Assembly (NCBI GenBank): GCA_963664405.1
Contig: OY761158.1
Location: 1,984,001-2,048,000, forward strand
DNA: 64,000 bases
Direction of reading: 5' to 3'
DNA from: Thermoanaerobaculia bacterium
GTDB lineage: Bacteria; Acidobacteriota; Thermoanaerobaculia; Multivoradales; Multivoraceae
Of this stretch, positions 6,402 to 38,971 are shown one piece after another. The notes below the pieces were generated by a model. That model searched no databases, was not told the DNA's origin, and saw nothing but the letters and a program-made list of their open reading frames with translations. Numbering within the stretch: position 1 is the first letter of the stretch; every line of letters begins with the position of its first letter. The position numbers were made by a program, and so were the translations under genes.

Positions 6402-7463
6402 TCACTCCCTCTCAAATACTTCCGCGACCGCGATGCCGCTTTCACCGGCAACGGCATAAAAGAGATAGACACGCCCCTCGTCCTCCAGAATCGCCGGGTC
6501 GCGAAGCTGATTCACATGCCCGTAGGCGGTGCTCCGCATCGACGGCTCGACCGGAGCGTCGGCGCCCTCCCAGTCGTATTCCGGCCTCAAGACCTCGACG
6601 TACTCGGTCTCCTTCCAATCGAGCCAGTCGCCGGAAAGGTCGATGCTGCTCAAACGAATGACCTCCGGGGCGGTACCGGCCTCGGTCCAGAACACCCACA
6701 ACCTATGGCCGCGCTTCAACAGCGCCGAGTGGCGCATGTTTGGGTTGAAGAGCATCGCGCCCTCTTCGAAATCGGTGAAGCCGTCTTTCGACCGGTAGAG
6801 CTGGCCTGGCATGGCCAAGGCATAGGTCATCTCGTCGTGATGAAAAATTCGCATGTAGGTGCGGCCAAGCACCTGCGGCTGCGCCGTGAAATCAATCCCG
6901 TTCTTCGAAGTGGCGACTCGAGATTTTTGAATCCCGACGCCGTCCAAGCCATGGAGATACATCACGATCTGGCGCCGGGCGAAGTCGACGTGAACGTCGG
7001 GCGAGGCTATGTGCGGCGTGGAGATCTCTTTGAGCATGTCGTGAGAGGCCTTCACACCCTTTCCGCTACTCGCGGCCTCCCTCTCGGCCACCATTTCCGG
7101 GGTGATCTCCGGTGGCTCGGTCAAGAAGCCCGAGTCTTCGATCTGCAAACTCCCCGGCGGGTGAATCGACCACGGGCCTGTAACTTTGTCTGCATAAGCC
7201 AATCTGATGTAGCGCCCTTTGTGATCGGCAAAGTAGAGGTAGTAGTTACCGAGTCGTCCCTCGATCCAGTCGGGAACTCGGATCACTGACGGGCCTTGAA
7301 TGTTCTGACCGATCGAAGGGTGAAGATCGGGCCCGACGATCGGTCGATCCAACAGCCGCTTGATGCGCACAGGTGACTCCCCAGCGGAAACAGTGGAGGT
7401 GATGCCGATCAGCACGATCGACGCGGCCAAGACAACCACAAGACCCTTCTTTCTCTCTCTCAT
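6402..7463 (-). CDS. Secreted hypothetical protein, probable glycoside-hydrolase-like beta-propeller
   Basis: Signal peptide MRERKKGLVVVLAA; motifs YYLYFADHKG, HIASPDVH and NQLRDPAI; paralog at 27890-28873. Confidence 0.7.
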   Translation of the reverse strand: MRERKKGLVVVLAASIVLIGITSTVSAGESPVRIKRLLDRPIVGPDLHPSIGQNIQGPSVIRVPDWIEGRLGNYYLYFADHKGRYIRLAYADKVTGPWSIHPPGSLQIEDSGFLTEPPEITPEMVAEREAASSGKGVKASHDMLKEISTPHIASPDVHVDFARRQIVMYLHGLDGVGIQKSRVATSKNGIDFTAQPQVLGRTYMRIFHHDEMTYALAMPGQLYRSKDGFTDFEEGAMLFNPNMRHSALLKRGHRLWVFWTEAGTAPEVIRLSSIDLSGDWLDWKETEYVEVLRPEYDWEGADAPVEPSMRSTAYGHVNQLRDPAILEDEGRVYLFYAVAGESGIAVAEVFERE

Positions 7464-7484
7464 CGGCCTAGGGTAGCAGCTCAT

Positions 7485-7648
7485 CTAGACCAGCGTTTCC
7501 AAAGTTCGTGTACATAGCTCGAGGTCATTCTGTTTGCTGGCAAGGCGCACCGACGCAGGCATATTGGGAATATGTCGAGGAGACGGAACGCCGCCAGCGA
7601 GCAGAAGGGGCCGAGATCTGTGCGCGAACTTTGGAAACGCTGGTCTAG
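7485..7648 (-). mobile_element. Palindromic MITE-like element, family A, copy 1
   Basis: TIR CTAGACCAGCGTTTCCAAAGTTCG / CGAACTTTGGAAACGCTGGTCTAG; 164 bp; opposite orientation to copies 2 and 3. Confidence 0.92.
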
Positions 7649-17995: not shown

Positions 17996-18161
17996 CTAGA
18001 CCAGCGTTTCCAAAGTTCGCGCACATATCTCGGCCCCTTCTGTCCGCTGACGGCGTTTCGCCTCCTCGACATATTGCCCAATATGCCTGCGTCGGCGCGC
18101 CTGGCCAGCGAACAGAATGACCTCGAGCTATTGCACACGAACTTTGGAAACGCTGGTCTAG
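17996..18161 (+). mobile_element. Palindromic MITE-like element, family A, copy 2
   Basis: Same 24-bp TIRs, 166 bp; its right CTAG contains the stop codon of the CusA-like gene. Confidence 0.92.
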
Positions 18162-21100
18162 CTATCCGAGGCGACTCGCCGATCACCCCGCTCCCTCCTC
18201 CGGCTCCGGGCGCCGAAGCGAGCGTAGAGCGCGGGGATCACGAAGAGGTTGAGCAGCGTCGATGTGACCAGCCCCCCCAGGATCACCAGTGCCATCGGGT
18301 GCTCGATCTCGTAACCCGGCCGGTTGCCACCGACGACGATCGGCAGCAAGGCCAGCATGGTGGTCAGGGCGGTCATCAAGATCGGCGCAAGGCGCTCCTC
18401 CGCGCCGCGGAGTGCCAGCTCTCGGCCGAAGGGCAGGCCCTCCTCCAGCTGTAGATGCCGGTAATGGCTGATCAGCATGATGCCATTGCGGCCCGCGATC
18501 CCGAGAACGGTCACGAATCCCACGATCGCTCCCAGAGAGACGACACCGCCGCCGAGGGCGACCGCAACCACACCGCCAACCAGGGCGAAAGGCAGGCTCA
18601 GAAAGACGAGAAAAGTGAGCTGTGCGGACCGGAAGTCGGTGTGCAGGACGAGAAAGATTCCCAGAATCGAAAGCGCGGACAGAGAGAGCAGCCGATTTCT
18701 TGCCTTCTGTTGCTCGATGTACTCGCCCAGAAACTCGGGGTGGTAACCCTGCTCGAAGGCAACCGTTCCCACCCGATCTTCGATCTCGCGCGCCACGCTG
18801 CCGAGATCACGGCCGGCGACGTTGCAGATGACATCGATGCGTCGCGACGCATTCTCCCGCTCGATGGTGTTTGGCGTGGGCGCGATGAAAACGTCGGCCA
18901 CCTCGCCGAGAGGGACCTGCGCGCCGGACGGTGTGTCGATCTTCATCTCGCGGATTCTGGTGACGTCGTTACGCACCCCCGGGACACCCCAGACCACCAC
19001 GTCGAAAGTCATCTGGTCCTGGTAGATCTCCCCCACTTTGGTGCCCTTGACCAGGGTCGTGGTGGCCCGCCTTAGGTGCCCGGAGCTGAGCCCGAACTGC
19101 TCCGCGCTGCTCTCACGCAGCCGGATCACCAGCTGCGGCACCATCACCTGCTGCTCTACGTGCAGATCCACGACCCCCGGAACCTGCCCCATCTCCGCGG
19201 CGACCGCCTCGGCGTGGGCGTAGAGCTGTTCGAGGTCGGGACCGAAGATCCGGACCACGATCGACCCGCTGGCTCCGGTCAGAACCTCCTTGATCCTCTC
19301 CTTGAGATAGGTGAGCACATCCCGGTACAGACCGGGGTAACCGTTGACCACCTCCTGGATCTTCGCCACCGAGGCGTCATAGTCGACGTCCGGATCGAGA
19401 CTGATCCAGAGCTCGGTGAAGTTCGGCCCGACGACCTCGTCGGCCACTTCAGCACGACCGATGTGGGCGCCGAAGTTGCGGACCCCCGGGATCGCTCGAA
19501 GCTCCCGGCTCACTCGCTCGGTGATCCGGCGCATCGCAGCCAGCGAGGTCCCCGGCTTCTCGACCCAGTGCATCAGAAAATCGTACTCCTTGAACCTCGG
19601 CATGAACTCCTCGCCAAGCAGAGGCAGGCCGGCGACGGTAAGCCCCAGGACGACGGCCAGCCCTGCGAGCACCGTCTTCGGCCGGCGCATCAAGGCCGGC
19701 AGCGCCCGCCGATAGAGTCTCTTCAGGCCTCTCACCAGACGCGGCTCCGCATGCTTCTGGGCTGCACGGGGAAGCAACAGCAGAGACAGCGCCGGAGTGA
19801 CCGTCAGGGCGACCAGCAGCGAAGCGAGGATCGCGAGCACATAGGCTGAAGCCAGAGGCCGAAAGAACGATCCGGAGAGCCCGTCCAGAAAGAAGACCGG
19901 CAGGAACACCAGCACCACGATCACGCTGCCATAGACCACCGCACTACGAACCTCGAGGGAAGCTTCGAGGACGACGCGAAACACCGGTCGAGGCTCGCTC
20001 GCGGCTCGATTCAGCCGCAGGCGCCGAATGATGTTCTCGACGTCGATGATGGCATCGTCGACCACCTCTCCCAGCGCGATGATCAACCCGGCGAGGACCA
20101 TCGTGTTGATGGTCCAACCGAGCCAGTCGAGAATCAGCACCGCGGTGAGCAGCGACAGGGGGATCGCCAACACGCTGATGAGCCCCGTCCTCCACTCCTC
20201 GAGGAAGGCGAACAACACCACCGCCACCAAGAGACATCCCGCGAGGAGGGCAAAGCGCAGGTTGGACAACGACATTTCGATGAAGGTCGCGGGCCGGAAG
20301 ATCGTGGAGTCGATCGCAATGTCCGCCAGCCCCGGACCAAGTGCATCGAGCGCGGCCTCGACTCCGCGGGTCACCTCGAAGGTGTTGCCCCACGGCTGCT
20401 TCTCGACGATCAGCAACAGCCCGGGCCCGTCGTTGATCACCGCATCCCCGATCGGCTGCGCGAAACCCTCTACGACATCGGCGACGTCCCCCAGCTCGAG
20501 CGCCGCTCCGTCGCGAAAATCGATCGGCAGGCGGGCGAGATCCTCCTCGGTCTCGACCGCTTGCCGGTGCAGTATCGCGAGGCGCTGATTCGGCGTATCG
20601 ACAAAGCCACCCGCACCGACGAAGAGAGCGGAGCGCAGAGCCTCGACCAGGCCCTCGAGAGTCAGGCTGTGAGCCCTCAGACGCTCCGGATCCACCAGTG
20701 CCTGCAGCTGGCGGTCCTTCTGTCCCCAGATCGCCACGTTGGCGACGCCGGGAACCGCCATCATGCGCGGCCGCATCGTCCATACCGCAAGGGTGGTCAG
20801 CTCCATCTGCGAGAACTTCTCGGAGGTCACCCCGACCTTCAGTACGCGACTCGTTGCCGAAAGGGGCGGCACCATCACCGGCGGACTCGCGACTTCGGGT
20901 AGTCGGCCGGTCAAGGTCGTGAGCCTTTCCTGAACGACTTGGCGCGCCTGCCAAAGATCCGTGCCCTGCTCGAAAATCAGTACCACCGAAGACAGACCGA
21001 GGACCGATTTCGAGCGCACCGTCTCGAGGAATGAAATGCCGTTGACGACGCTCTCGATCGGCACACTGACCAGGCTCTCCACCTCTTCGGTCGAAAGGCC

Positions 21101-21262
21101 GGGAGCCTCGGTCTGAATCTCAACCAGGGTCGGCGCGAACTCGGGGAAGACGTCGAAGGGCATCGTGCGCGAAGCCCTGACACCCACCACGATCAGCACC
21201 GCCGCCAGGACCACCACCACCCCACGGTGGCGCAGAGAGATGGAAACGAGCCAATTCATCAT
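18158..21262 (-). CDS. CusA/CzcA-family RND efflux permease
   Basis: [34 protein letters not shown] and [12 protein letters not shown]; about 1030 aa. Confidence 0.93.
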
Positions 21263-34664: not shown

Positions 34665-36319
34665 AAGAAGAGCTGTACCCACTCTCCGTCGAACTCCGCG
34701 AGGCGCGATCGGATGGGTCCTTGGATCGGCTCCCCAAGCCCCTTGCGCCAACTGTTGACCGCCGCCTCCAGTCGCTTGACCACCTTGGGGTTCTCTTTCG
34801 CCAGATTCGTCGACTCGCCGGGGTCCGCATCGAGGTCGTAGAGCAGCGTCACTTGGCCGAGAGTGGGCTCTGTCGACCAACCGTCGGCGGGAGGGGTCAA
34901 TCGCTGCCCAGCATTGTCCATGTCCGCAGGCCTCAGGTCTGTCCGGTTGTGCTTGATCAGTTTCCAGCGCTTGTCTCTGACCGCGAGGGTGGGTCCCGAT
35001 CTCCAATAGAGATACTCGTGCGGCCTCCCCTTTCGCTTACCCTCGACAAAAGGTAGCAGGTTGACGCTGTCCTCGGTCTTGACCTCTTTACCAGCGGCCG
35101 CGGTGAACGTAGCCAGCAGGTCGAGTGTGCTCACCGGCTCGGAGTAGACCTTTCCCGAGGGGAGCCGGGCCGGCCAGCTCATGATGAGGGGCACCCGCAC
35201 GCCACCCTCGTGGTGGTACGCCTTGAAGCCACGGAGCGGCGCGTTCGAGCAGGCACCACGGTTGGAGTCGGTACAACCATTATCGCTGGCAAAGACGATC
35301 AGAGTGTTCTCGAGCTGATCGATGGTCTCGAGCGCCGCCACTACGCGGCGTACGCTTTCGTCTAGCGAGGAGACCATAGCCGCAAACACACGGGTCCGCT
35401 GGTCCGCGACGTCGCGGTAATTCTCCAGATAACGCGCCGTCGCCTGCAGGGGCGTATGCGGTGTCGTGTGACTGAGATAGAGAAAGAACGGCTCATTCGG
35501 GTGGCCTTTGATGAAGTCGACGGCCTCGGCGCTGAAGACGTCGGTCAGATAGGCCTCGACCTGCACTTCGTCGAAACCGCGAAGCACTTTGTTGCCCCGC
35601 TTCGTCGGCCCGGATTCCCCACGCAGAGAACCGTATTCAACCCCCGGCTTTCGCGAGTCGATAAAGATGCTGCCCCCCTCGAGCACACCGAAGTACTCGT
35701 CGAAGCCGCGACTCATCGGATGGTAGGGCCTGGGCTGGCCCAGATGCCACTTGCCGACCATGCCGGTGGCGTAGCCCAACGGCTTCAACCGGTCCGCAAG
35801 GGTGCGCTCCTCGAGTCGTAGACCGACCGAGCGATCGCGCCCCACCGGGTTGAACTCCCAGCCATGGCGCTGCTGATGGCGCCCGGTGATCAGGCCCGCG
35901 CGCGACGGGCTGCACACCGGATGACTCACATACCCCTCGGTGAATCGAACACCTCTGCGGGCCAGGGCATCGATCGCGGGTGTCTCGTTGATCTTGCTGC
36001 CGTAGATGCCGACATCCCCGTAGCCGAGGTCGTCAGCGAGAATCAGCACGATATTGGGCGCGCGATCTTCTTGGAGCCCCGCGAGGGGGGCCACGGCGAG
36101 GACGCCCACCGAAAGGGCAACCAAGATGGGAAGAGACTTGGGCCATCTAGACCAGCGTTTCCAAAGTTCGCGCACAGATCTCGGCCCCTTCTGCCCGCTG
36201 GCGGCGTTGCGCCTCCTCGATATATTGCCCAATATGCCTGCGTCGGCGCGCCTGGCCAGCGAACAGAATGACCTCGAGCTATTGCACACGAACTTTGGAA
36301 ACGCTGGTCTAGTCATCAT
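34661..36319 (-). CDS. Sulfatase (formylglycine type) carrying an in-frame 54-aa MITE insertion
   Basis: PNIVLILADDLGYGD, CSPSRAGLITGR and GKWHLG; start MMTR at 36319 after GGGGAG. Confidence 0.93.
   Translation of the reverse strand: MMTRPAFPKFVCNSSRSFCSLARRADAGILGNISRRRNAASGQKGPRSVRELWKRWSRWPKSLPILVALSVGVLAVAPLAGLQEDRAPNIVLILADDLGYGDVGIYGSKINETPAIDALARRGVRFTEGYVSHPVCSPSRAGLITGRHQQRHGWEFNPVGRDRSVGLRLEERTLADRLKPLGYATGMVGKWHLGQPRPYHPMSRGFDEYFGVLEGGSIFIDSRKPGVEYGSLRGESGPTKRGNKVLRGFDEVQVEAYLTDVFSAEAVDFIKGHPNEPFFLYLSHTTPHTPLQATARYLENYRDVADQRTRVFAAMVSSLDESVRRVVAALETIDQLENTLIVFASDNGCTDSNRGACSNAPLRGFKAYHHEGGVRVPLIMSWPARLPSGKVYSEPVSTLDLLATFTAAAGKEVKTEDSVNLLPFVEGKRKGRPHEYLYWRSGPTLAVRDKRWKLIKHNRTDLRPADMDNAGQRLTPPADGWSTEPTLGQVTLLYDLDADPGESTNLAKENPKVVKRLEAAVNSWRKGLGEPIQGPIRSRLAEFDGEWVQLFF
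36147..36312 (+). mobile_element. Palindromic MITE-like element, family A, copy 3 (intragenic)
   Basis: Same TIRs, 166 bp; removing 162 bp restores ATG ATG ACT AGA TGG (MMTRWPKSLPILVAL). Confidence 0.93.
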
Positions 36320-36338
36320 GCGACTCCCCCTTGTAAAG

Positions 36339-36956
36339 TCACGGCGACGAGGCTCGGTCCAAGGCCTCACGAAGCGCACGGGCTCGCTCCCAGGCCGGGC
36401 CCGGCGACTTTGGTGTAGCGTTCTCGTAGACGGGTTGGGCATGCAGACAGCCGAAGACGGGGCCCTCCGCATTCAAGACTTCGTGAACCTGACTCGCCCA
36501 CGCCTCGAGATCGGAAAACTCGAATACCGACTCAAAGCCGCAAGTGCGAGCCATCTGCGCAAAATCCACCGCCCTGCCACCGCGAAGCGCGGCAGAACCG
36601 GGCGTATCCTGCGCCCCGGTGACCTCGTAGACGCCGTTGTCGAAGAGAAGCACGATCAAGTTCTTCGGCCGCTGCGAGGTGATCGTCACCAGCGAACCCA
36701 GATTCATCAGCATCGATCCGTCCCCGTTACAGACGACAACTCGCCGATCCGGCTGCGCCAGAGCCAACCCCAGCCCCACCGATGTCGCCTGACCCATGCT
36801 CGAGGGGACATAGACCAGATCGAGCGGGTGGCTGCCGAGCCGCATCCACTCGCGGGCGCAGCCCATGGTTGTGACCACGATCTCGTCGCGTCGAGCCGTG
36901 TGCAAGACGCCGATAACCTCGGCCAGCGGCATCGCACCACGCTGCGCGGCAGTCAT
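36339..36956 (-). CDS. TPP-dependent decarboxylase beta subunit (ComE / phosphonopyruvate decarboxylase-like)
   Basis: SSMGQATSVGLGLALA and NGDGSMLMNLGSL...DNGVYEVTG TPP motif; start MTAAQ at 36956. Confidence 0.85.
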   Translation of the reverse strand: MTAAQRGAMPLAEVIGVLHTARRDEIVVTTMGCAREWMRLGSHPLDLVYVPSSMGQATSVGLGLALAQPDRRVVVCNGDGSMLMNLGSLVTITSQRPKNLIVLLFDNGVYEVTGAQDTPGSAALRGGRAVDFAQMARTCGFESVFEFSDLEAWASQVHEVLNAEGPVFGCLHAQPVYENATPKSPGPAWERARALREALDRASSP

Positions 36957-37438
36957 GCCTTGCCCTCCGCGATCAACGCGACACCGGAGCGGCCCTCGTC
37001 CCTGCAACTTCGGTAGAGCCCGGCGATCTCGGCAAATTGCTCCGGTGCTGCGATCAGGCGGTACTCGAGCTTCCAGGCGTCGAGGATCGGCTCGGTGAAG
37101 GTGAGGCAGGTGTCGCCTGGCAGGGTGTCCTGGCTGAGGTAGCTGCGATAGCCGACGATCGCGAACAGCGGCAGCCGATAGTCGTGGAGCAGATTTCGCA
37201 GCGCGTCGCCTGACTCGAAGAGTCCGGTGCACTGAATCATCACCACCGGGCTCGCACCGCCCATATATAACCCGGCCGCAACTCCCCAGGCCTCGCCTTC
37301 GCGGCAGACCTGAATCACCTGGACCTGGGTCTCAGTGATCTCGCTCAACCACGGCCCCAGAGTGCTGTCGGGGATGGTGACGACATGAGTCACCTCGAGC
37401 TCTTCCAGCAGCGTAGCGATCTGGGCTCCTTCAAACAC
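36953..37438 (-). CDS. TPP-dependent decarboxylase alpha subunit (ComD-like)
   Basis: VVTIPDSTL, CREGEAWGVAAGLYMGG..PVVMIQCTGL and IVGYR. Confidence 0.85.
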   Translation of the reverse strand: MFEGAQIATLLEELEVTHVVTIPDSTLGPWLSEITETQVQVIQVCREGEAWGVAAGLYMGGASPVVMIQCTGLFESGDALRNLLHDYRLPLFAIVGYRSYLSQDTLPGDTCLTFTEPILDAWKLEYRLIAAPEQFAEIAGLYRSCRDEGRSGVALIAEGKA

Positions 37439-37450
37439 GGTCGGAGTTCT

Positions 37451-38971
37451 CTAGAAGAAGAGCTGGACCCACTCTCCGTCAATCTCAGCGAGAGTCGATC
37501 GAATGGGCCCCTGAATCGGATCCACCAAATCCTTACGCCAAGTATCGAGCGCCGCTTCCAGGCGCTCGACCACCTTGGGGTTCTCTTTCGCCAGATTCTT
37601 CGCTTCGCCGACATCGCCTTCGAGATCGTAGAGCAGCGTCAACTGACCGTGAGGTGAGTCGGTCGACCAGCCACCCGCGGGAGGTGCCATTCGCCCATCC
37701 GCCCCGAGATCGGCGGGGCGGAAGTCGGTCCGATTGAACTTGATCAGCTTCCAGCGGTGGTCTCTCACGGCAACAGTCGGTCCCGATCGCCAGTAGAGAT
37801 AGTCGTGGGGTCGGCCCGCTCTCTTACCCTCGAGATAAGGCAGCAAGTTGACGCTGTCTTCGGTCGTGATCTCCTTGCCCGCGGCCGCGGTGAAGGTCGA
37901 TAAGAGGTCGAGGGTGATCACCGGCTCTGAGTAGATCTGACCCGCGGGAAGTCTCGCCGGCCAGCTCGCGATAAAAGGCACCCGCACCCCACCTTCGTGG
38001 TGATAGCGCTTGAAACCCCGAAGCGGCTCGTTCGAGCACGCACCGAGGATGTAGCCCGCACAGCCATTGTCGCTCGAGAAGACGAGCAGAGTGTTGTCGT
38101 ACTGGTCGATGGCCACCAGAGCCTCCACCACTCGGCGCACGCTCTCGTCCAGGGAGGCGACCATCGCGGCATAAACGCGCGTCCTCTGGTCGCTGATGTG
38201 GCGATAGTCCTCGAGGTAGCGCGCGGTTGCCTGCAGAGGTGTGTGCGGCGTGGTGTGGCTCAGATAAAGAAAAAAGGGCTCCTCGGCGTGACCCTTGATG
38301 AAGTCGACCGCCTCGGCGGTGAACACGTCGGTGAGGTAGCGCTCGACCTCGACCTCGTCGAACCCCCGAAGCACCTTATTGGGACGCACCGTCGGCGCCG
38401 GCTCGCCACTCAGAGAGCCGTACTCCACCCCCGGCTTGCGGGAGTCGATGAAGGTGCTGCCGCCCTCGAGCACACCGAAATACTGATCGAAGCCGCGGCT
38501 CATCGGATGGTAGGGCCTCTTCTGTCCCAGGTGCCACTTGCCGACCATCCCGGTGGCGTATCCCATCGATCTGAGGTGATCGGCAATCGTGCGCTCTTCG
38601 AGCCGCATGCCGGCGGAGGCATCGCGTCCGGCGGGGTTGAACTCCCAGCCGTGCCGCTGCTGATAGCGGCCCGTTACCAGCCCCGCCCGCGAAGGGCTGC
38701 AGACCGGGTGACTCACGTACCCCTGGGTGAATCGCACACCTCCAGCCGCTAAAGCGTCGATATTGGGGGTCTTGATGGTCTTGCTACCGTAGACACCGAT
38801 GTCGCCGTAGCCCAGATCGTCACCGAGGATCAGCACGATGTTGGGCGGTCGGGTCGCCTCAGCGGGTGCTTGCGCCGCTGCCCCCGCGATACCGAAGGCG
38901 GGACCGATGGCCAATGCAGTGAAGACGAGAGCCGCGCAGCGAAGGAAGATGCGGACCGAGATCAAACCCAT
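37451..38971 (-). CDS. Sulfatase (formylglycine type), paralog of 34661-36319
   Basis: Signal peptide; PNIVLILGDDLGYGD and CSPSRAGLVTGR. Confidence 0.95.
   Translation of the reverse strand: MGLISVRIFLRCAALVFTALAIGPAFGIAGAAAQAPAEATRPPNIVLILGDDLGYGDIGVYGSKTIKTPNIDALAAGGVRFTQGYVSHPVCSPSRAGLVTGRYQQRHGWEFNPAGRDASAGMRLEERTIADHLRSMGYATGMVGKWHLGQKRPYHPMSRGFDQYFGVLEGGSTFIDSRKPGVEYGSLSGEPAPTVRPNKVLRGFDEVEVERYLTDVFTAEAVDFIKGHAEEPFFLYLSHTTPHTPLQATARYLEDYRHISDQRTRVYAAMVASLDESVRRVVEALVAIDQYDNTLLVFSSDNGCAGYILGACSNEPLRGFKRYHHEGGVRVPFIASWPARLPAGQIYSEPVITLDLLSTFTAAAGKEITTEDSVNLLPYLEGKRAGRPHDYLYWRSGPTVAVRDHRWKLIKFNRTDFRPADLGADGRMAPPAGGWSTDSPHGQLTLLYDLEGDVGEAKNLAKENPKVVERLEAALDTWRKDLVDPIQGPIRSTLAEIDGEWVQLFF

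Follow-up and report, generated by a model that had tools for sequence, protein, structure and literature searches.

A MITE (a transposable element of the miniature inverted-repeat type) lies in frame in the signal-peptide coding region of a Cys-type sulfatase gene in the 64,000-nucleotide stretch of Thermoanaerobaculia bacterium contig OY761158.1 analysed here (the window), and other members of its family occupy equivalent positions elsewhere in the genome, which is a single contig of 6.78 Mb. Sixteen of 137 copies with paired ends are found in frame in signal peptides. In all 16 the net gain is a multiple of three base pairs (3n; 162 bp in 14 copies, 174 bp in one and 252 bp in one), versus 60 of the 121 other copies (Fisher p = 5.5e-5, or 1.2e-4 when 15 loci are counted). 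We consider it probable, though far from certain, that the element in the sulfatase gene is a tolerated, near-neutral passenger, read from the native start codon and removed together with the signal peptide, and not a functional 'peptide donor'.

An insertion in the signal-peptide region of a sulfatase

CTAG stands at both edges of the element (window positions 36147-36150 and 36309-36312), and the CTAG-to-CTAG span of 166 bp corresponds to a net gain of 162 bp, or 54 stop-free codons. The ends of the element begin GACCAGCGTTTCC and form a perfect inverted repeat of 21 bp; this 21-mer has six matches (three pairs) in the window, where none is expected from 100 shuffles. The sulfatase gene is encoded on the minus strand and the insertion point follows its codons 3-4 (ACT AGA), such that the gene reads ATG ATG ACT AGA, element, TGG CCC AAG TCT CTT CCC ATC TTG GTT, with no stop codon. 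A Shine-Dalgarno-like sequence, AAGGGGGAG (36324-36332), is located four bases ahead of ATG ATG ACT AGA. On the other side of the element the hydrophobic core of the signal peptide begins after five residues (Kyte-Doolittle window 2.91 at offset 7). When the element was excised in silico and one CTAG was kept, the N-terminus became MMTRWPKSLPILVALSVGVLAVAPLAG-LQEDRAPNIV, which is a normal signal peptide. The stretch encoded by the element is strongly basic (13 K+R versus 2 D+E over 54 codons), and the sulfatase domain that follows is unbroken (PF00884, residues 88-410, E = 4e-60).

These features bear out most of what an earlier note, made from this DNA alone, had described. The note had placed a 166-bp MITE with duplicated CTAG edges, adding 162 bp without a stop codon, in the signal-peptide coding region of the sulfatase; its peptide was reproduced exactly, and the element indeed lies downstream of the native Shine-Dalgarno sequence and ATG with an intact core after it. 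Its statements that excision restores a normal signal peptide and that a neighbouring paralog (37451-38971, domain from residue 43) has no insert were also found to be correct.

We propose that a non-autonomous transposon, a 160-bp MITE whose inverted ends measure 21 bp, entered the gene for a periplasmic Cys-type sulfatase at the TA within a CTAG of codons 3-4. Since the main form adds exactly 162 bp and keeps a stop-free frame, translation from the native Shine-Dalgarno sequence and ATG would run on through the 54 basic codons into the intact core and cleavage region. The extra peptide would only lengthen the n-region of the signal peptide, whose hydrophobic core and cleavage region would still direct export, and signal peptidase would then remove the extension. 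That the native start is used, that the protein is still exported and that the peptide is removed are three points which we infer from the sequence. The mature sulfatase is probably unchanged, because the added peptide lies in the part that is normally removed by signal peptidase. For the same reason the term 'protein-modifying', which the note had applied to the element, is an overstatement; the pattern across the genome looks like one of tolerance rather than of peptide donation.

Length, orientation and site of the copies across the genome

A blastn search of the genome with the element gave 392 high-scoring segment pairs at 261 places, 129 of which align over at least 150 bp with 85-100% identity. 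Searching for the 24-nt end with up to 4 mismatches gave 299 matches, which resolve into 139 left/right pairs and 21 singles; 137 of the pairs span at least 150 bp and are the copies counted above. The family has terminal inverted repeats, a size of 158-160 bp, a high copy number and no transposase gene, as is typical of MITEs. Its members fall into length classes of 166 bp (63 copies), 165 bp (20), 167 bp (16), 179 bp (14), 178 bp (7), 244 bp (5) and 257 bp (4), plus rarer ones. The classes that are not 3n are amplified subfamilies: one deletion is common to 18 of the 20 165-bp copies, one pattern to 11 of the 16 167-bp copies and one 13-nt insertion to nine of the 14 179-bp copies. Copies of these classes thus existed and could have inserted, but no signal peptide contains one.

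We counted a copy as lying in a signal peptide when it was placed between a start codon followed by a few mostly basic residues and a hydrophobic core no more than ∼ 12 residues from the element. The 16 copies represent 15 independent loci, because one locus is duplicated (1277111 and 1641948; genome positions, like all others beyond the window's length). Without the element, each of the 16 N-termini has the look of a Sec or lipoprotein signal peptide, a lipobox-like L-x-x-C being present in five, and across the loci the element places 54-84 extra residues ahead of these signals. Pfam was run on 15 of the 16 genes (duplicate locus 1641948 was left out) and found intact periplasmic-type domains in 13: sulfatase (three genes, including that of the window), DUF3604 (three), and one each of M20 peptidase, metallo-beta-lactamase fold, amidohydrolase, SBP_bac_5, GSDH with cytochrome c, PD40/DPPIV and TPR.

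Orientation is biased as well. In the consensus, frames 0 and 2 of orientation B and frame 0 of orientation A (B0, B2 and A0) are open, and A2 carries a TGA. At signal-peptide sites in frame 2 the stop-free orientation B occurs eight times and A not once (7 to 0 for independent loci), whereas at frame-0 sites, with both orientations open, there are five B and three A copies. The length and orientation filters taken together argue that, at these sites, the whole element is translated in genes that are still useful. The earlier note had proposed a count of intragenic copies for frame bias, and the bias is there.

We estimated site occupancy with rough gene calls made for this purpose, which comprised 5193 genes and 85% coding sequence; a hydrophobicity rule marked 30% as 'signal-peptide-like'. 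The element occupies CTAG at 50 of 821 stop codons, 53 of 2481 intergenic sites, 8 of 126 plus 3 of 71 sites in signal-peptide N-termini, and 15 of 3416 sites in gene interiors. Occupancy of signal-peptide sites (∼ 6%) thus equals that of stop-codon sites. Four of the 15 interior copies are in fact at stop codons whose flank has mutated, and six belong to N-terminal zones (the longest open reading frame, ORF, having been taken), so that 2-4 are truly deep. About half of all copies are on stop codons or between genes. In 16 of 18 in-frame cases the added peptide precedes the hydrophobic core of a predicted cleavable signal peptide, and only two clear deep in-frame copies were found, one in a PIN domain and one in a membrane protein. 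Cleavable signal peptides, TAG stop codons and intergenic DNA seem to be where this MITE family persists.

In the first of the two deep cases (L052; copy 1662917), the MITE splits the domain of a PIN_3-domain (VapC-like) ORF (1662645-1663262) in frame, and Pfam matches are found on both sides of it. In the second (L058; copy 2808100) it lies amid hydrophobic segments of ORF 2807195-2808661, which resembles a multi-pass membrane protein and has no Pfam match. Three copies at the 5' ends of genes are exceptions to the pattern above. The 167-bp copy at 5396393 is directly ahead of a GTG start, and that at 2497115 (frame A2) is most likely in a 5' leader. The third (1440627-1440792) is read in frame A2, with its stop, at the extreme N-terminus of a gene that by eye is acetoacetyl-CoA-synthetase-like; an ATG in this element, 10 codons before its end, shares the frame of the gene and may have become its start codon.

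Target site and relatives of the element

CTAG flanks both ends of 114 of the 137 copies. Eight copies, with TA intact on both sides and an odd outer base, are informative about the duplicated target. The flanking 4-mers are unequal in all eight and the inner G and C are kept; none fits a duplication of 4 bp, although mutation after insertion may also account for these flanks, the count being eight outer versus two inner changes. The target duplication is more likely TA inside CTAG than all four bases. Hence the 'duplicated CTAG' of the earlier note stands in so far as CTAG is present on both sides, but the duplicated target is probably the TA within it. This target rule suggests a family of IS630/Tc1-mariner type. 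The IS630 family duplicates TA, according to the available part of PMC2170065, and the title of Tenzen & Ohtsubo (1991), cited there, states that an IS630-associated composite transposon prefers TA in 5'-CTAG-3'.

DDE_3 (IS630-type) transposases are encoded at two loci of the genome. One of these insertion sequences (ISs; L145) has imperfect inverted ends of 41 nt and is flanked by CTAG; at neither locus are the ends like those of the MITE. A search for an autonomous partner showed that no pair of terminal inverted repeats 300-6000 bp apart encloses a transposase, except where foreign ISs have inserted into MITE copies. Two kinds of 'long copy', of 2.7 and 3.6 kb, were considered as parents and rejected, as they are insertions into MITEs of an IS91-like element (with a tyrosine recombinase) and of an IS21 element; five further candidate end pairs were dismissed as chance matches. 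The 2.7-kb elements (6272417-6275124 and 6758843-6761549) interrupt two MITE copies at an identical point (∼ base 80), and this coincidence suggests that they favour a specific site in the MITE core. Each contains, by eye, a 308-aa tyrosine-recombinase-like ORF and a 399-aa ORF resembling IS91/Y2-type transposases. The 3.6-kb element, in another copy (6281697-6285337), carries IS21-like ORFs named by eye as IstA- and IstB-like.

The inner 70-120 bp of the MITE recur without the ends at 76-88% identity, with ∼ 130 partial matches in this genome. Many copies of this core are also present in four relatives (G004, G009, G034 and G039) from other genera and another family of the same order, which points to a superfamily of hairpin repeats with a common core and different termini. 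The exact 24-nt end was found at seven loci in three metagenome-assembled genomes (MAGs) among species-representative genomes; the MAGs are labelled Acidobacteriota, Vicinamibacteria and, in one case, Alphaproteobacteria, and none of the loci is informative about signal peptides. In one 166-bp subfamily (4969290-4969455) two compensating 1-bp indels, which keep the length, take the peptide from the B2 reading to B0 and back to B2. The same variant is present in a different MAG (L041). An Rfam search with the element gave nothing; the sole match was a sub-threshold hit to ASdes (16.8 bits versus a threshold of 40) at 36038-36102, beside the element.

Alleles without the element and alternative explanations

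Contigs from public runs were compared with window positions 35500-37000. In X1, two contigs with 0 differences from the window start in the unique flanks and break off 29 and 25 nt inside the element; X1 is the filled allele, broken at the repeat during assembly. The element is absent from X8 (a 10.3-kb contig) and X9, both of which cover 35500-36079 and resume at 36311. In the gap, 231 letters (162 of the element and 69 of the signal-peptide sequence) give way to 60 others. In the 2.1-kb contig of X12, 36135 and 36310 are directly joined, and the sequence reads ATGATGACTA up to the junction and CTCTTCCC after it, encoding MMTTLPILV in frame. At this junction, the one that could be read, the allele falls short of the excised one by 12 nt and CTAG is missing; it is therefore not an exact empty site, and none was seen. 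The flanks of the MITE-free contigs are 95-98% identical to the window, including the upstream gene for a thiamine-pyrophosphate (TPP) enzyme; X8, X9 and X12 therefore represent orthologous loci without the element. The earlier note had suggested looking for an empty allele in relatives, and to this extent one exists. The MITE-free alleles indicate that the sulfatase insertion is recent and lineage-specific. The ATGATG retained in X12, together with its in-frame indel, supports the native start of the sulfatase.

No related genome is of the same genus, and family-level relatives match the sulfatase from its mature part only (query 637-643 on) and thus reveal no empty site. Among metagenome contigs the best relative is 65% identical and no orthologous empty site was found at letter level; six metagenomic sulfatase homologues (54-65% identity) have short N-termini, and nothing in them aligned to the stretch encoded by the element. 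A different insertion, in the TPR gene (6461667), is shared with a 92%-identical protein on the contig of a related strain, and both alleles are in frame despite a 4-codon indel inside the element. Across the genome, the copies in signal peptides were compared in age with the remaining 166-bp copies and are no younger (median of 4.5 versus 6 differences from the consensus, p = 0.21).

Several points weigh against a tolerated passenger. Translation from the native ATG is something we infer, and when the N-terminus encoded by the element was searched against a protein database, no sulfatase with the full element N-terminus was matched; of 13 candidates between 303 and 966 aa long, three do match, two from the host genome and one being the TPR protein of the related strain. 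The lack of acquired stop codons was considered as evidence of selection and rejected, as A0, B0 and B2 are open in 47/49, 47/49 and 48/49 of the 166-bp copies outside signal peptides; stop-freedom is a property of the family, not evidence of selection. The signal-peptide calls are those of a hydrophobicity heuristic and home-made gene calls rather than of SignalP or annotation. The element is, moreover, a near-palindrome with a predicted RNA fold of -107.6 kcal/mol (z = -9.4), and a hairpin of this stability, with its stem starting 7 nt past the ATG (+8), could lower initiation or attract RNase III. A recent insertion adjoining a paralog could also be a mildly harmful or silencing one that is still segregating. 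These last points lead to the view that the allele is a knock-down or incipient pseudogene, in which the hairpin blocks initiation or triggers RNase III and the paralog covers for it until the allele is lost or decays. The MITE-free alleles in three related populations and the uninterrupted paralog 1.1 kb upstream would fit, as would the hairpin itself. We nevertheless regard this as unlikely: the sulfatase ORF and its domain are fully intact, the 16 signal peptides hold only 3n, stop-free copies where dead genes would take any length, these copies are as old as the others, and the TPR insertion has kept its frame in a strain 92% identical.

The element might instead donate a start codon. Translation from the GTG at 36173-36175 would give a signal peptide of normal length, MRELWKRWSRWPKS..., the element would act as a portable 5' leader and the native ATG would be irrelevant. 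The open frames of orientation B do carry a start ∼ 10 codons before the end of the element, 8-10 nt past AAGGGG (ATG in frame 0, GTG in frame 2), 13 of the 16 signal-peptide copies are in orientation B, and the resulting n-region would be basic. The failure to match a sulfatase with the full element N-terminus would also be accounted for, as the gene model in the database may start elsewhere. Under this model, however, the length of the element would be free, yet the 165-, 167- and 179-bp subfamilies contribute 0 of 16 signal-peptide copies versus 61 of the 121 others, and the common 165-bp deletion lies upstream of the internal start in orientation B. Three copies have orientation A, in which there is no such Shine-Dalgarno sequence and start, and the TGA in frame A2 is sufficient to explain why B is in excess (in frame 0 it is 5 B to 3 A). 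In the sulfatase copy the putative internal Shine-Dalgarno sequence and GTG would both be paired in the predicted stem. Taken together, these data make a donated start improbable. Still harder to reconcile with the data is an adaptive role, in which the basic extension of 54 residues has been recruited for the route or timing of export, for membrane retention or for regulation by the hairpin. The peptide is strongly basic, and a 3n main form with three of four usable frames open has an estimated chance of only ∼ 0.03 from base composition. But the three frames (A0, B0 and B2) place three different peptides at the same position, one with a net charge of about -1, relatives of the sulfatase have no insert, and an occupancy equal to that of stop-codon sites does not require positive selection. 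We give this possibility very little weight and retain the tolerated passenger as our working explanation.

The sulfatase and its paralog, which lies 1.1 kb upstream, are 79% identical in DNA across the first 361 bp of the mature part. Both sulfatases and the split TPP-dependent enzyme between them (36339-38971) are on the minus strand with short gaps, and the upstream TPP-enzyme ORF stops 19 nt ahead of the sulfatase ATG in an operon-like layout. The cluster may be an operon for organosulfur catabolism. A promoter scan of 35900-36700 found no sigma-70-like promoter, although this consensus is possibly not valid for the host phylum. Two more copies of the MITE lie in the window (Table 1); if ORF 6402-7484 is real, the copy next to it parts it from any upstream ribosome-binding site.

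Table 1. Positions of the sulfatase insertion, its component parts and other features of the window. Positions are those of the window; TIR, terminal inverted repeat.
Feature	Position	Strand	Remarks
Cys-type sulfatase gene, including 54 element codons	34661..36319	-	552 aa as it stands; CSPSR motif present
MITE with flanking CTAGs	36147..36312	.	Element proper under the TA-duplication model: 36150-36309 (160 bp)
TA copies (TA-duplication model)	36148-36149 and 36310-36311		
Left TIR, GACCAGCGTTTCCAAAGTTCG	36150..36170	+	Exact match; 0 expected by chance
Right TIR	36289..36309	-	Perfect reverse complement of left TIR
Native translation start	36314..36332	-	ATG 36317-36319; second ATG 36314-36316
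Signal-peptide remainder after element: WPKS and hydrophobic core LPILVALSVGVLAVAPLAG	36078..36146	-	
Candidate alternative start in element	36173..36190	-	AAGGGG 36185-36190, 9 nt, in-frame GTG 36173-36175
Two overlapping ORFs, split TPP enzyme (TPP_enzyme_N and TPP_enzyme_C)	36339..37438	-	Between the paralogs
Tandem sulfatase paralog without insert	37451..38971	-	Domain starts at residue 43
Second full MITE copy	17996..18161	.	Coincides exactly with the TAG stop of AcrB-family gene 18158-21262 (-)
Third MITE copy, 164 bp	7485..7648	.	Abuts ATG of ORF 6402-7484 (-), which has no Pfam match

Comparison with known elements and significance

Rickettsia palindromic elements (RPEs), whose original paper is reportedly that of Ogata and colleagues from 2000, were the model for the earlier note, which had suggested that the same strategy occurs in an apparently unrelated lineage. 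In itself this is not new. Fusions of MITEs in frame outside Rickettsia are already in print: in the parts available to us, PMC10969869 presents RPEs as the extreme case and lists ERIC, QMITE1 and Anabaena MITEs as well, and in-frame fusions made by ERIC/RU elements are described in PMC2759123 (Delihas, 2007). As far as the available descriptions go, RPEs resemble the present family in being palindromic repeats of ∼ 150 bp with many copies, in frame and stop-free in genes, to which they add a conserved peptide. Going by that description, the present MITE is set apart by its other lineage (probably Acidobacteriota), its apparently unrelated sequence family, its clear terminal inverted repeats and its TA/CTAG target. 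Within proteins its insertions are concentrated in the presumably cleaved signal peptide and not in the mature part, only two clear in-frame cases being deep, and about half of its copies are on stop codons or between genes. The peptide of an RPE stays in the mature folded protein, whereas that of the present MITE would be cleaved off. The present MITE is RPE-like in effect but is probably not an RPE.

RUP of Streptococcus pneumoniae is an IS630/Tc1-mariner-derived (Stowaway-like) MITE. IS630-type MITEs of this sort share with the present family their small size, inverted ends, CTAG flanks (here 114/137) and, probably, TA duplication (which 8/8 informative copies fit here), and differ in that the present genome yielded no autonomous element whose inverted ends match. 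The extended signal peptide region (ESPR) of autotransporters is a long stretch at the N-terminus that precedes a normal n/h/c signal, and the protein is still exported and the signal cleaved. The filled sulfatase likewise has a long extension before a normal signal, but an ESPR is a conserved, inherited motif and there is no sequence relationship. The available parts of the work on ERIC/RU and QMITE1/2 describe elements that are mostly intergenic, sometimes lie in ORFs, encode basic peptides, overlap stop codons or C-termini and form stable RNA hairpins, all as seen here; QMITE1/2 of Coxiella overlap C-termini (PMC5896051). Those sources report C-terminal overlaps or scattered intragenic copies, and a systematic niche in the n-region of signal peptides is not described in the parts available. 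We found no paper linking bacterial MITEs to signal peptides, nor any on MITEs of Acidobacteria that target CTAG, and the main texts of PMC10969869 and PMC5896051 do not once contain the word 'signal'.

The family is thus a new MITE family of a known kind with a specific, quantifiable niche. Why some coding positions tolerate in-frame MITEs is poorly understood, and this genome offers 15 independent natural experiments in which length and orientation show clear signs of selection. Provided that export of the pre-proteins does take place, very long and highly charged extensions can be absorbed by the n-region, signal peptides are a refuge for selfish DNA inside genes, and gene callers will often misplace the starts of such genes. 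N-termini encoded by MITEs are neither new domains nor necessarily a sign of pseudogenes, which should be borne in mind in annotation. More tentatively, and with the odds in our view somewhat against it, we speculate that cleavable signal peptides may be a general safe harbour for bacterial MITEs inside coding sequence, that the present family, with its 3n length, its three stop-free frames out of four usable ones and its mostly basic peptides, may have been shaped at the level of the element to exploit this harbour, and that such insertions may, repeatedly and unrecognized, have given rise to long n-regions and driven the evolution of signal-peptide length in different phyla.

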